Positions 15,945 through 19,998 of a stretch of DNA of 20,000 nt are shown one piece after another. The notes under the pieces are model-generated. The model searched no databases, was not told the origin of the DNA, and worked only from the letters and a program-made list of their open reading frames with translations. The stretch is taken from the IMG/VR virus record IMGVR_UViG_3300046675_000363. One strand, given 5' to 3'. The stretch's first letter is position 1. Each line of letters begins with the position of its first letter. A program made the translations under genes and the position numbers. The DNA is from an uncultured virus (IMG/VR IMGVR_UViG_3300046675_000363). Taxonomy: Duplodnaviria > Heunggongvirae > Uroviricota > Caudoviricetes.

Positions 15945-16364
15945 TTAGCTCGCCAGCCGTTGGACGTAGCATGCCAGCATGTGCTTGCGGCAATAGATGG
16001 TCGTGCCCGGTTTATCGACCCGCTCGCAGCAATAGGTCACGCCCGCCGGCGATCGCGCATCGCCAAACGGATAGCGGCAGGTGAAAGCCGTCAGGCCCAT
16101 GATCGTCCGATCCTGAACAGGCGGCGCGATCGGCGCGGCGGGTGCGGCGATTGTTTTCATTTTGGGCGTCCTCGGCGGTCTGGGTGGCGTCGGCTCTTTG
16201 GGCGACACTGCACCCTCGGCCCGACTGACGTCGAATCCGCGAGCGCGGAGCCTGGATATGACGCCGATGATCGCGTTCTTGGTTTTCCCCAGCTTTGCGC
16301 CAGCCTGCGTTCCTGTCAGACCGGCCTTCCACAGGGCCAGGATCGCGACCTCGTCGCTGTTCAT
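15945..16364 (-). CDS. gcrA: GcrA-like cell-cycle transcriptional regulator
   Basis: N-terminal HTH LWKAGLTGTQAGAKLGKTKNAIIGVISRL, Pro-rich linker and C-terminal CRYPFGD...YC...YCRKH...Y. The alternative start is 16388. Confidence 0.85.
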   Translation of the reverse strand: MNSDEVAILALWKAGLTGTQAGAKLGKTKNAIIGVISRLRARGFDVSRAEGAVSPKEPTPPRPPRTPKMKTIAAPAAPIAPPVQDRTIMGLTAFTCRYPFGDARSPAGVTYCCERVDKPGTTIYCRKHMLACYVQRLAS

Positions 16365-16365
16365 T

Positions 16366-16599
16366 TCAGTTCGTTTGTTGTGCGTCATTTAGAATGTTCT
16401 CGTATTTCACGCCGCAGAACGGGCAATGTGTCGGGACGATGAGCGGCATCTTTTTGCCCACGCTACTGACGATTTTTTCAGTCGCGAGCAGCGTAGGGAT
16501 AACGACCAGGTGGCCATTGGTGATGTGAAAAGCCTGGGCCAGCCTGGTGTTATTGTCGGCAATCAGCGCATTCATTTCGTCGGCGCAATTGCAGGTCAC
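16366..16599 (-). CDS. Small phage Zn-ribbon protein (CxC...CPFCG)
   Basis: GTG at 16599 has GGAG upstream and overlaps the upstream stop (GTGA). Sequence MTCNCADEMN...PTHCPFCGVKY. Confidence 0.7.
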   Translation of the reverse strand: MTCNCADEMNALIADNNTRLAQAFHITNGHLVVIPTLLATEKIVSSVGKKMPLIVPTHCPFCGVKYENILNDAQQTN

Positions 16600-16823: not shown

Positions 16824-17201
16824 CTACCGCTCATTTTGGTCCTCCACTTTTTCCGTGATTCGGGCATTTTCAATTTTCTTGTCGACGATCGCCAGGATCT
16901 CTGCGTAGTTCTGCTGGATCTCAACGCGCAGCGCCCTGTAGGCGTCCGCTTTGCTGGCGTACCAGGGACCGCCGGTGCCCTGGGAATCGGTCCTGTCGGT
17001 CCTGCTGTAGCTGTGAGCGCCGGCCCTAAAGCAGCCGACGCCGACTTCCCGATTATACTGGTTGAAAGCCCAGCCGATCTGGAGCAGTTCGCTGGGGACC
17101 AGCCTGAACAGCGTAAAATCGCGAAAGCGCATGGCGCGCGCTTCGTCTAGCTGTTTTAGCGTCGCCGCGAACGCCGCCTTCTCAAGCTTGGTCATGGACA
17201 T
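16824..17201 (-). CDS. Hypothetical phage protein
   Basis: 125 aa, overlapping the stop of the MazG-like gene. Globular composition (GWAFNQY...SQG...YASKADAYRALRVE). Confidence 0.7.
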   Translation of the reverse strand: MSMTKLEKAAFAATLKQLDEARAMRFRDFTLFRLVPSELLQIGWAFNQYNREVGVGCFRAGAHSYSRTDRTDSQGTGGPWYASKADAYRALRVEIQQNYAEILAIVDKKIENARITEKVEDQNER

Positions 17202-17659
17202 TGTTTTAGCCTCGTCTTGAAGCCCAGCTTGCGGCTGGTTTCATTGAACTTTTCGGCGGTCGCCCTGTCCAGGTTGATGCCGCTCTTGATGGCGATCAGC
17301 GACACATAAACCATGACGTCGCCCAGTTCTGTCGCCAGATCGCGGACACTGGCGCGTGAGCCGTCGAGGCCCAGGCGCTCGCGCTCCAGCTTTTTGATCA
17401 CGTTGCAGGCTTCGCCCATTTCGCCGGCGGCGGCGTTGCCGTAATAGGACAGGTCGAGCTTGTCGCTGTTCTTCCATTCAAGCTGGCGGGCGATGTTGGC
17501 CTCTTCCAGCGTGTCATAATAGATGACGGGTTGGGCCTTTCTGGGTATGGGCTGCACCTTTTCAAGCACCCCAGTAATCAAGTTGTGGGCGACTATTTGA
17601 TCCATGCAAGCTTTGTGGGCGAGCAGTATGCTCATGGCGTCAATTTCTTCAGGGGTCAT
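17192..17659 (-). CDS. MazG-like nucleotide pyrophosphohydrolase
   Basis: AGEMGEACNVIKK...ELGDVMVY...GINLD.A..EKFNE gives the ExxE...ExxD metal-binding signature. AAGGA lies upstream of the start. Confidence 0.88.
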   Translation of the reverse strand: MTPEEIDAMSILLAHKACMDQIVAHNLITGVLEKVQPIPRKAQPVIYYDTLEEANIARQLEWKNSDKLDLSYYGNAAAGEMGEACNVIKKLERERLGLDGSRASVRDLATELGDVMVYVSLIAIKSGINLDRATAEKFNETSRKLGFKTRLKQCP

Positions 17660-17708: not shown

Positions 17709-18359
17709 TCAGACCGGTTGACGAAAAGCGACGATGCGGCGGATCGACACCATGCCATAGCCGACATTGTGCCGGTGGTTGCCCGACAGCAGCAGGATCG
17801 AGCTAGGATAGACTTTGGCGACGACGCCGATGTGATGCGGCAGGACAGCGATCGCGCCGGGCTTGGGCGCGCTGGGGCGGCCATAGCGGGCATAATCGAC
17901 GGCGGCGAGCGACCCTAGGCGGGAATAGCCGGCCTCGCGCAGCCACAGACCCACGGAGGCCGCGCACCAGGGGCCATTGAAGCCGGTGAAGTTGCCGCCG
18001 CCGATATAACGCTCCGCGACGTGCAGGAGGCGCGTATCGCCGCTCAGGGACGCCGTGGGCGTGTAGAAGCGAAAGCCGAATAGGCTGAAGCCCTGATCGG
18101 GTTCAGGGGCCACCGCCGCCGCCGCGCGCGCATAGACGCGGCGCTGATAGTGATGGTGGTGATGATGCGCGACAGGGCGCCAACGATGATACACGCGGCG
18201 AGGCTTCAAGCTTTGGAACGATCGCTCTTGCGCCTCCATGCCGAAAATGCGCCGGATGTTGAAATTTTGACTGGACGTTTGCGGCGGCGGGTCCACACTA
18301 GCAAATGCCGGCGAGGAACACGCCACGAGTAGAGCCGTGACGGCGAGCAGCTTTCGCAT
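17709..18359 (-). CDS. Secreted CHAP/NlpC-P60-superfamily cysteine amidase (TIGR02594-like)
   Basis: ATG at 18359 with AAAGGA upstream. Signal peptide MRKLLAVTALLVACSSPAFA, His/Arg-rich linker and catalytic pattern PWCAASV...PGAIAV..HHIGVV...LSGN. Confidence 0.8.
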   Translation of the reverse strand: MRKLLAVTALLVACSSPAFASVDPPPQTSSQNFNIRRIFGMEAQERSFQSLKPRRVYHRWRPVAHHHHHHYQRRVYARAAAAVAPEPDQGFSLFGFRFYTPTASLSGDTRLLHVAERYIGGGNFTGFNGPWCAASVGLWLREAGYSRLGSLAAVDYARYGRPSAPKPGAIAVLPHHIGVVAKVYPSSILLLSGNHRHNVGYGMVSIRRIVAFRQPV

Positions 18360-18379
18360 CTTGCATCCTTTCTGGACAT

Positions 18380-18414
18380 AAAAAGAGCGCGCCCTGCGCG
18401 AACAGGACGCGCTC
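18380..18414 (-). terminator. Rho-independent terminator
   Basis: The minus strand reads GAGCGCGUCCUG-uucgcg-CAGGGCGCGCUC-UUUUU, a 12-bp stem plus U-tract, 25 nt after the stop at 18439. Confidence 0.85.
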
Positions 18415-18438
18415 AATTACTCAACTAGGACGTGACGA

Positions 18439-18801
18439 TCAGTGACCGGCGACGCCGCCGCCAACCGCGATCACGCTCGATCCGCCGCTGGTGGTCGAAC
18501 CGGCAAGGCCATTGCCGGAAGACGCAGCGAGGGTCGAAGAGGTCGAGGACGCCGTTCCGGCGCCGCCGCCACCCGCGATGGCCGGGCCGAAGAAGCCGCC
18601 GACAGCGACGCCCCCGCCGCCCGCAACGCCGCTCGCAGAGGCGGTCGTGCCGCCAATGGCCGAAGCATGACCCAGCGAACCCGTCAGGGTGCTGGAGTGA
18701 GTGCTGGTGATGACGGTGCCGCCACCCACGCCGAAGTCGAGGGCGAAAGCCGGGGCCGCAAGCATCGACAGGCCGGCGGCGAGAACAAAGATCTTCTTCA
18801 T
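18439..18801 (-). CDS. Secreted Gly/Ser/Ala/Thr-rich small protein
   Basis: ATG at 18801 with GAGGA upstream. Sec signal MKKIFVLAAGLSMLAAPAFA, a nearly uncharged mature part, and its own terminator. Confidence 0.8.
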   Translation of the reverse strand: MKKIFVLAAGLSMLAAPAFALDFGVGGGTVITSTHSSTLTGSLGHASAIGGTTASASGVAGGGGVAVGGFFGPAIAGGGGAGTASSTSSTLAASSGNGLAGSTTSGGSSVIAVGGGVAGH

Positions 18802-18861
18802 GCTGTAATTCCTCACACAGTGTGTTGCCAGGGAAGCCGCCCTGGCGCGGATATCGAATTA

Positions 18862-19295
18862 ATCGGCGGGTCTAGCAGCGGGATCGAACCGACACACCCG
18901 TCGCGGACAACTTACGTTGCAGCGAGAATAGAACCATCTCTTGTTGCCCACCCCCGGCCTTGTCGAGGTAAGAGCTTGCCCGCGCTTCGTACCTTACTCG
19001 CGGGTTCATCTGGCCCGCCGATCAACTACCCCTTGCGGGATTTCAAAACCACTGACCGCCCTCCGAAACCGCTTAAGTGACAAGTTCGGCCAGTGGCTTG
19101 CTTGCTTTCGTGGCTGGATCCATTTGGAGCAAACCCAGAACGCCCCGCTCTCCACGGGGGACGCAAGATCTCTTCATGACCGCCGAGCCGGTGGGGACGA
19201 ACCCTTCACCTTCCCTCGGCGGTCAGCTTGCTTTCGTGGCTCGCTGATGAGCAAGGGCCACGCCCGCCCGGTTCGGCGCGCGGGGACGCAAGATC
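18862..19295 (-). ncRNA. Candidate structured RNA cluster of unassigned family
   Basis: Nested inverted repeats, GNRA and UUCG tetraloops on the minus strand, and two copies of a three-way-junction motif with compensatory changes. No credible ORF covers the region. Confidence 0.6.
19100..19295. repeat. Bipartite direct repeat with ~125-nt period
   Basis: GCTTGCTTTCGTGGCT at 19100-19115 and 19226-19241. GGGGACGCAAGATC at 19157-19170 and 19282-19295. The intervening sequences differ. Confidence 0.9.
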
Positions 19296-19998
19296 AGTTG
19301 GAAGCCGTCTTGACGCAAACGCCGGCGTCGGCAGACTGGCGGGCGCCCTTGGTGCCGCAGGCGGCGACGACGTACTGGTGGCCTTTCTTGTCGAAGTAGC
19401 TGGCCGAACGCTTCATGTCGAGGGCCACGGGCTGCGACTTTTCGCCAGGAACCGGACCATGGTATTCGCCCTTGAAGACCGGGTGCCCATAGCTTTCGGT
19501 ATAGGCGACCGTCTGCACAGCATAGCGACCGATCCGGCAGCGGACGCCAGAGGCGACCAGGGCCGAAGCTACCTCGTCGTCCTGGCACATGACCTGGATC
19601 GCGGCGTCACGCTGCCCGAAAGCCCATAGAGTGCGAGCGTTGAGGCGCTTGTTGCAAGGCCCGTCCTGCCAGGGAAACCCAAGCGCCCCACCGCCGCCGA
19701 CAGCGGCGCCGCCCAGGGAGACGGAGCCATTGCAGCTTTCGATGCCGGCGGCGCTCATGCCGGGAGCAAACACCGCCGGCGACTGGCCAGTGGTGGTCGA
19801 ATTGAAATTGTTGGTGTTGGCGGCGCCAGACTGGTTGGCGTTGACCGAGCGGACAGCCGTGCTCTGGGCCGAATTGATGCGGCTGTTGACGTTGGAGTTG
19901 GAGCGCGAGGCCGAATTGGACTGGCTGGCCGACAGCGCGGTGTTGCGGTTGTTCTGGACGGGATCGGCAACAGCGGCGGAATTGGAGCGCGAGTTGGA
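19294..19998 (-). CDS. Ser/Asn-rich protein with Cys-patterned C-terminal domain (5'-truncated; probably exported)
   Basis: The frame is open to the window edge (SNSRSNSAAVADPVQNNRNTALSASQSNSASRSNSN...), then PAVFAPGMSAAGIESC.GSVS.G...C..RLNARTL...G..DAA..VMCQD..V..AL...GVRC. I recognise this pattern from uncharacterised phage and proteobacterial proteins. Confidence 0.75.
   Translation of the reverse strand, partial: SNSRSNSAAVADPVQNNRNTALSASQSNSASRSNSNVNSRINSAQSTAVRSVNANQSGAANTNNFNSTTTGQSPAVFAPGMSAAGIESCNGSVSLGGAAVGGGGALGFPWQDGPCNKRLNARTLWAFGQRDAAIQVMCQDDEVASALVASGVRCRIGRYAVQTVAYTESYGHPVFKGEYHGPVPGEKSQPVALDMKRSASYFDKKGHQYVVAACGTKGARQSADAGVCVKTASN

Follow-up and report, generated by a model that had tools for sequence, protein, structure and literature searches.

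A candidate accessory RNA cassette with a tRNA-like half in an intercistronic spacer of an uncultured phage

Bacterial Y RNAs are described as 80-130 nt long, with a long stem formed by their ends and a module that mimics the D and T arms of tRNA; they are processed from longer transcripts and are also found in phages (PMC4201824). The same source places YrlA genes within 4 kb of a Ro60 (TROVE) gene and on the same strand (PMC4201824). Described here is a 189-nt block that can be compared with these RNAs. It comes from a 20,000-nt stretch of an uncultured virus of the Caudoviricetes (IMG/VR record IMGVR_UViG_3300046675_000363), and this whole stretch is called the window. The block lies at 18849..19037 on the minus strand, upstream of a gene for a glycine-rich secreted protein, and it is present in some genomes of the phage group and missing from others. 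It holds a multi-branch RNA domain that was noticed in a preliminary description of the sequence, where it was taken for either a riboswitch-like leader or a standalone phage RNA.

Two further kinds of element bear on the comparison. Intercistronic spacers can punctuate or stabilise polycistronic mRNAs, as do the RNase III sites of phage T7, tRNA punctuation and stabilisers of the REP type. MITEs, or miniature inverted-repeat transposable elements, are defined in one source as non-coding elements of 50-800 bp that carry no transposase, with terminal inverted repeats whose length is at least 10-15 bp and a target-site duplication of 2-10 bp, and they are given there as rare in viral genomes (PMC11602168).

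The block, its junctions and a diverged copy

The record to which the window belongs (138,254 bp; the window is G000:C1:49398-69397) consists of two phage genomes of about 69 kb that follow each other head to tail, with a direct repeat of 99 bp at the ends and aligned blocks that are 77-94% identical. Related complete contigs measure about 67 kb, and the record most likely arose when two strains that occur together were assembled as a chimera. The second, 85-90% identical genome has the corresponding locus at 91% identity, without the 189 nt of window 19037-18849; ATCC stands at each junction. The extent of the block was set by pairwise and four-way alignments and by BLAST against 11 related IMG/VR loci, which were collected by way of the upstream protein; an alignment search with the glycine-rich protein recovered the same 11 contigs. 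Two of these loci carry the block, both 100% identical to the window, and the other nine do not. A lack of conservation among related phages, which the preliminary description had named as a ground for refutation, is largely what is seen. In the loci without the block, as in the sister genome, the glycine-rich gene is retained together with its 5' hairpin and the ribosome site with its Shine-Dalgarno region. The start codon is 48 nt from the block, and the conserved hairpin stands in between.

The junctions lie in two imperfect direct repeats on the minus strand, each delimited by local alignment to the other. The left repeat (19030..19047) comprises a linker and the start of a mini-hairpin, and the right repeat (18840..18858) a linker and the start of the 5'-untranslated-region (5'-UTR) hairpin of the glycine-rich gene. 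These units of about 19 nt are identical in 15 of 19 columns, a score that was reached by 5 of 1000 shuffles. The empty site of the sister genome is composed of the left half of the left repeat and the right half of the right repeat, and a stem-closed domain of 171 nt sits exactly between the two. This domain is bounded by a terminal inverted repeat (12 nt, 92%), which is set in from the two ends of the 189-nt indel by 10 and 8 nt. In L021, the most diverged relative, both repeat units stand in tandem a few bases apart, including the GCAA mini-hairpin, without the domain. Three states of the site are therefore seen: nothing, the mini-hairpin alone (L021), and the mini-hairpin with the domain. 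In our reading, recombination at the short repeats accounts for gain or loss of the block; repeat-mediated loss would be easy and gain at the shared core equally possible.

The block was also found in 24 soil and rhizosphere sequencing runs, all of DNA. Contigs of four of these runs were aligned to the locus, and the insert-less form co-occurs in all four. In one of the four, run X4, a contig with a depth of 5.39 covers 18952-19043, and the differences listed are four substitutions and one deletion. The substitutions turn the pair 19001/18982 from G-C to A-U and the pair 19000/18983 from C-G to U-A, two compensatory changes in the helix of arm 1 of the domain, and the 1-nt deletion is at 18991 in the loop of that arm. 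This deletion excludes coding through the arm 1 loop on either strand. Beyond 19043 the contig matches lineage L017 in 29 of 30 letters; L017 is without the block, and its empty site shares the seven letters GATATCC with the right junction of the window. The other half of the block is represented by a second diverged X4 contig, which spans 18778-18973 with 19 differences and 7 gaps. Judged by these contigs, at least two backgrounds appear to carry the block at one and the same site, with arm 1 apparently maintained.

Fold of the domain and its likeness to tRNA

On the minus strand the domain occupies 18857..19027, as judged from folds, pair probabilities and the inverted repeat. The preliminary description had drawn a closing stem (19022-19014/18870-18862) around four arms, and the nine Watson-Crick pairs of this stem were borne out by reading and by a pairing check. 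The stem grows to 14 pairs (19027-19014/18870-18857), of which 12 are Watson-Crick and two G-U. Ensemble pair probabilities are 0.95-1.0 for the closing stem, 0.91 for arm 1, 0.57-0.76 for arm 3 and 0.81 for arm 4. Arm 1 (18979..19004) is, as first described, a 6-bp helix CCCGCG/CGCGGG at 19004-18999/18984-18979 with a loop of 14 nt, and it is the sole helix with comparative support. Arms 3 and 4 were likewise confirmed. Arm 3 (18901..18925), identified from the sequence and pair probabilities, encloses the hairpin GCAAC-GUAA-GUUGU (18920-18907), with its GNRA loop, within UCGC/GCGA. Arm 4 (18877..18900) is T-arm-like and holds GGUUCGAUCC (18890-18881) within CGGG/CCCG, according to the sequence, cmscan and pair probabilities; its tRNA-style 5-bp stem has a single U-C mismatch.

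Arm 2 was drawn less well. The pairing CUCUU/AAGAG (18974-18970/18942-18938) exists in the sequence, but its probability in the ensemble is about zero, and the minimum-energy fold instead pairs GCUC/GGGC around CCUCG/CGGGG at 18946..18975. The AAGAG segment competes as part of a D-stem-like helix, GAGA/UCUC, whose hairpin (18924..18940, loop UGGUUCUAU) comes from the cmscan alignment and has a pair probability of 0.38; an alternative form has a 6-bp stem and a UGGU loop, like tRNA-Sec. The proposed pseudoknot stands as a possible pairing of 5-6 bp, GUAAG(G) with (U)CUUAC. At the left edge of the block the mini-hairpin UCCC-GCAA-GGGG (19029..19040), also reported earlier from the sequence, was found as described at 19040-19029, and it is this hairpin that stands alone in L021. 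The proposal of a separate RNA domain is thus supported: it is self-contained, has its own closing stem, is present or absent as a unit and shows the compensatory changes of arm 1 in the variant.

No Rfam family matches the window at the gathering level. Below threshold, tRNA-Sec (RF01852, clan CL00001) aligns at 18953-18869 with 19.3 bits against a cut-off of 47 bits, with an E-value of 1.1 in a 1.7-kb search and of 0.14 when the insert is searched by itself, where it is the only Rfam family with E <= 10. What carries the alignment is a T-loop of canonical form and a D-loop with UGGU (18936-18933): GGUUCGAUCC agrees with the T-loop consensus GTTCRANYC closed by G53-C61, and UGGU supplies the GG of the D-loop. 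Most acceptor columns are non-pairs, and in place of a 7-nt anticodon loop there is the GUAA tetraloop of arm 3, which sits in the position of the anticodon arm with a loop of only 4 nt. The insert was examined for a score at the gathering threshold, detection by ARAGORN, an anticodon loop of 7 nt and an acceptor stem beside the T arm in which the 5' and 3' ends pair, and none of these was found. The Rfam and ARAGORN checks that were proposed for the domain therefore returned no known family at threshold and tRNA-Sec alone below it.

With default settings ARAGORN calls no tRNA and no transfer-messenger RNA (tmRNA) in the window or the whole record, and at a threshold of 80% it returns a poor cloverleaf only. 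For tmRNA, Rfam likewise has no match at E <= 10, and the only call, by ARAGORN at a 60% threshold, is implausible and on the opposite strand. Neither the record nor five related genomes contain tRNA genes, so that the block is not a member of a tRNA cluster. The T-loop consensus occurs once in the 138-kb record, in the insert, and once in the five related genomes. Among tRNAs of the metagenome loci the best match was to tRNA-Ala (score 15.5; top of 30 shuffles 14.0); it was not used, as it depends on the T-loop anchor by which these loci were collected. Joined as in a circle, the ends of the block showed no significant similarity to the internal T-loop region (91 of 1000 shuffles). As read from its sequence, the 3' half of the block is similar to the part of a class-II or selenocysteine-type tRNA that comprises D-arm, variable region and T-arm; it is not a tRNA.

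An optional cassette and the alternatives

The reading that we favour, and to which we give about an even chance, is that the block is an optional, structured, non-coding RNA cassette with a tRNA-like half, and that it is not a regulatory leader of the downstream gene. The cassette has no known family, and it lies in a long intercistronic spacer of interchangeable hairpin modules. It would be transcribed on the minus strand within the operon mRNA, given that the flanking genes are all on the minus strand, that five G-U pairs form on that strand only and that no promoter-like site was found within 18300-19500, where the sole terminator-like hairpin follows the glycine-rich gene. Both flanking repeats contain a single-stranded A/U-rich linker that also separates other modules of the spacer. 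This linker may be an endonuclease processing site of the spacer transcript, and cutting at both linkers would give a free RNA of about 180-190 nt, shielded by its terminal stem. In our reading, the operon transcript is probably cut so as to release the cassette, whose tRNA-like D/T elbow might then engage host tRNA-binding factors, in the manner of tRNA-mimic RNAs such as the bacterial Y RNAs.

A bolder combination of these steps, which we consider improbable, is that a gene-less RNA cassette spreads between co-infecting soil phages by recombining at a short core that it shares with the target and is excised as a free tRNA mimic that acts on the tRNA-binding machinery of the host. The shared core would be GA[A/T]ATCC, itself T-loop-like. 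Such an RNA might, for instance, decoy tRNA-directed defence nucleases or be an orphan partner, Y-RNA-like, of Ro60 or an exonuclease of the host. If true, the accessory RNAs of lytic phages would gain a new class that is mobile and protein-free.

Several points weigh against a functional cassette. The minimum free energy of a 191-nt segment has z = -1.21, with 21 of 200 shuffles as stable, and that of the 171-nt domain has z = -1.19 (20 of 200); the opposite strand fares slightly better when set beside shuffles of its own (z = -2.37; 4 of 200). Against shuffled sequence, the comparison by which the fold was to be judged, the domain is hence not above chance (z -1.2), and what does exceed chance is the rarity of the T-loop word, tRNA-Sec as sole Rfam match and the coincidence of the domain with a clean indel. 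The comparative support amounts to one contig of depth 5.39 in one of four runs, in which arm 1 alone is informative, and hairpin-templated mutation (quasipalindrome correction) could yield such paired changes without selection. Presence in about one of seven lineage types also fits a neutral or selfish insertion. No homologue was found outside this phage group in IMG/VR, GenBank phages, plasmids, the Genome Taxonomy Database (GTDB) or metagenomes. Finally, the processing role of the linker and the binding of tRNA factors are conjecture throughout.

Two rivals are serious. In the first, the block is selfish DNA, a gene-less miniature mobile element of MITE-like or mini-integrative kind whose fold is a by-product of inverted terminal repeats. 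We regard this as unlikely, though much about the block would suit it: the clean presence/absence, the 12-14-bp inverted repeat that bounds the domain, the ATCC direct repeats at the junctions, the diverged copy at apparently the same site in a second background (the L017-like left flank), and the GATATCC of the empty L017 site that recurs at the right junction of the window. Its size and non-coding nature, without a transposase, also fit the MITE definition (PMC11602168). On the other side, the block is present in one copy only. A covariance model matched once in the record, at the insert, and not at all in nine related records, IMG/VR patterns built from four parts of the insert returned only the same phage, and an inverted-repeat pattern gave six unrelated matches that are ascribed to chance. 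The insert had no match in 50,697 GenBank phage records or 72,556 plasmids, a 22-mer running from the T-loop to the 3' side is absent from 185,579 GTDB species genomes, and a scan of metagenomes with a 22-mer found nothing beyond the same phage. Transposase, integrase and reverse transcriptase (Y1_Tnp, Phage_integrase, RVT_1) are missing from the record. As the ATCC belongs to the longer imperfect repeat, which L021 has in tandem without the domain, it is not necessarily a target-site duplication. At the DNA level the terminal repeat is imperfect on account of two G-U pairs, and the paired changes sit in an internal hairpin for which a DNA transposon has no need.

The second serious rival holds that the block is captured foreign DNA in decay, namely a degenerate class-II or selenocysteine-type tRNA gene with its flank that arrived by illegitimate recombination and has no function. 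The weak tRNA-Sec alignment, in which the D- and T-loops are good and the acceptor and anticodon parts broken, is what such a remnant would leave, as is the poor cloverleaf that ARAGORN reports at the 80% threshold only; tRNA genes are absent from the phage group itself, and most lineages do without the block. No donor was found for it in the GTDB species genomes, plasmids or phages covered by the searches above. The compensatory changes fall in arm 1, in the half that is not tRNA-like, and the ends of the block coincide with a 14-bp stem and with repeat units of the spacer, unlike those of a random fragment. We judge this origin to be quite unlikely.

Chance structure in an ordinary indel of a variable spacer, with the stems and the T-loop-like word a coincidence, is very unlikely in our estimate. 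The folding energy is indeed within the range of the shuffles, GC-rich sequence folds readily, and clean indels are common between the two genomes of the record. The others that were examined, however, are small open reading frames with overlapping start and stop signals rather than non-coding sequence, the T-loop word is unique in the record with tRNA-Sec as the sole Rfam match, arm 1 carries paired changes, and the ends of the stem coincide with those of the indel.

Other candidates were tried and rejected. A small protein is contradicted by stops in all three sense frames and by the 1-nt deletion of the variant; for the frame that is open in antisense, a search of about 5.8 billion protein clusters gave no relative. 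The attachment site of a temperate phage is at odds with a genome of lytic type (SU10/N4-like portal, adaptor, DNA polymerase A and primase) without integrase. A group I intron fails on its possible boundaries, none of which ends in G, and on the lack of an Rfam intron match, and a retron or an element of the IS200/605 type on the absence of a reverse transcriptase and a Y1 transposase. A metagenome pattern that joined the T-loop to the junction hit 119 loci; the BLAST similarity there was the T-loop word alone, and ARAGORN called 20 tRNA genes at these loci.

The riboswitch-like cis-regulatory leader of the preliminary description is barely credible: its position upstream on the coding strand, multi-branch fold, GNRA loops and possible pseudoknot are what first suggested it, but a needed leader would be kept, and nine of the 11 related loci and the sister genome lack the block while retaining the gene (81-86% protein identity), the hairpin and an intact ribosome site, no riboswitch or other aptamer family matches in Rfam at any threshold, no terminator-like or sequestering structure connects the block to the ribosome site, and no terminator-like site that could act as an expression platform was found between the block and the start codon.

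Genomic setting and comparison with known systems

On the minus strand, a gene ending at 19294 is followed by a spacer of about 490 nt, the glycine-rich secreted protein gene (18439..18801, 120 aa) and a terminator-like hairpin (18414-18385). The 5'-UTR hairpin of the glycine-rich gene (GCCAGGG...CCCUGGC; 18827..18846, minus strand) lies outside the insert and is kept in all seven lineage types, among which three of its pairs show compensating changes (A-U/G-C, G-C/A-U and G-C/A-U). The glycine-rich protein, which has a signal peptide, is unusually well conserved: it is 81-86% identical across lineage types, also where identity of the upstream protein is down to 58%, and no Pfam or PHROG family was found for it. 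The next gene encodes another secreted protein, with a weak PHROG match (E 1.3e-4) to a tail-lysozyme family.

Upstream of the block, the spacer (19295-19045, minus strand) holds two tandem modules of about 70 nt, Y-shaped three-way junctions that each open with GAUCUUGCGUCCCC and close with GCCACGAAAGCAAG, with a long hairpin after each. The window type, the B type, L016 and L017 have two copies of this module; L018 and L020 have a single copy, and L021 has none. The spacer of L021 (L021:2905-2935) is only about 75 nt long and consists of the stop codon, the GCAA mini-hairpin, the 5'-UTR hairpin and the ribosome site, which makes it the minimal form. By reading, a short linker R-A-N-A-U-C-Y, in similar forms, opens all four module boundaries of the spacer. 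Other clean indels between the joined genomes lie at G000:C1 27900-28017 and 28209-28479 in the first genome and at 31366-31940 in the second, counted from its own start at G000:C1:69299. They hold small reading frames at overlapping stop/start signals (ATGA/GTGA) and represent gain or loss of gene cassettes.

The record encodes a portal, adaptor, small terminase, DNA polymerase A, primase and helicase of SU10/N4-like kind, and by its gene content the phage is lytic, podovirus-like and about 69 kb in size. Distant relatives of the portal include those of Caulobacter, Roseobacter and Pelagibacter phages, and the host is probably alphaproteobacterial, as judged from the sequence. The phage also encodes a GcrA-like regulator of the cell cycle (Pfam E 2e-12) and a protein with a Tad2-like anti-Thoeris domain (E 2e-20), at 15945-16388 (minus strand) and L007:7191-7898 (plus strand), respectively. 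The GcrA protein was used as a handle on the host, and no genomic relative of it was found. A MazG-like pyrophosphatase is encoded at 17192-17659. A search of the record for integrase (Phage_integrase), Y1 transposase (Y1_Tnp), reverse transcriptase (RVT_1) and TROVE protein found none of them.

Compared with MITEs, the block is alike in being small and non-coding, with inverted ends and short flanking direct repeats, and in varying between close relatives. It differs in that its flanking repeat is a pre-existing imperfect unit of about 19 nt rather than a clean target duplication, and in the paired changes of an internal hairpin. MITEs would also be expected in several copies, whereas there is one in the record and none in nine related records or in the phage, plasmid, species-genome and metagenome collections searched. 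The comparison with tRNA-Sec and class-II tRNAs is closer: the insert has the T-loop decamer, the UGGU D-arm and a short hairpin like a variable arm, in tRNA order. In contrast to these tRNAs, it has no paired acceptor stem, its T stem is mismatched, a 4-nt loop takes the anticodon position, and about 85 extra nt lie between the closing stem and the D-arm.

Like the spacers that punctuate or stabilise polycistronic mRNAs, the block lies between co-oriented genes in an array of stable hairpins with short A/U-rich linkers. It differs from them in its tRNA-like D/T half and four-arm junction, features that we know of in no punctuating spacer element. Should the block prove inert, it would still offer a convincing-looking multi-arm fold upstream of a gene that a comparison of relatives has shown not to be a regulatory leader. 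The intercistronic spacer itself can be viewed as an array of swappable RNA-structure modules, for which these uncultivated alphaproteobacterial phages would be a test bed of module gain, loss and processing.

The nearest architectural analogue of the block is the bacterial Y RNA (YrlA, or Yrn1 of Deinococcus). The likeness is one of architecture only: the block has a 14-bp terminal stem and D- and T-like arms, and its order of D-like arm, short anticodon-like hairpin and T arm is that of Yrn1 in the source, where YrlA is described with a permuted order of T, acceptor-like stem and D (PMC4201824). The TROVE domain (PF05731) has no match in the record (0 of 1), with a positive control in Deinococcus, and the 5' motif GNCGAAN0-1G, the putative point of contact with Ro60, was not found in the block, where the nearest form is UACGAAG in the hairpin loop of arm 1, away from the terminal stem. 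At 171-189 nt the block is also longer than the 80-130 nt given for Y RNAs in that source, and Rfam has no match to it outside tRNA-Sec. If the block is a functional tRNA mimic, the Y RNAs would be nearest to it in architecture, yet it would have no Ro60 partner. It would then be a rare pure-RNA accessory gene of a lytic phage, exchanged in the way of a protein-coding moron.

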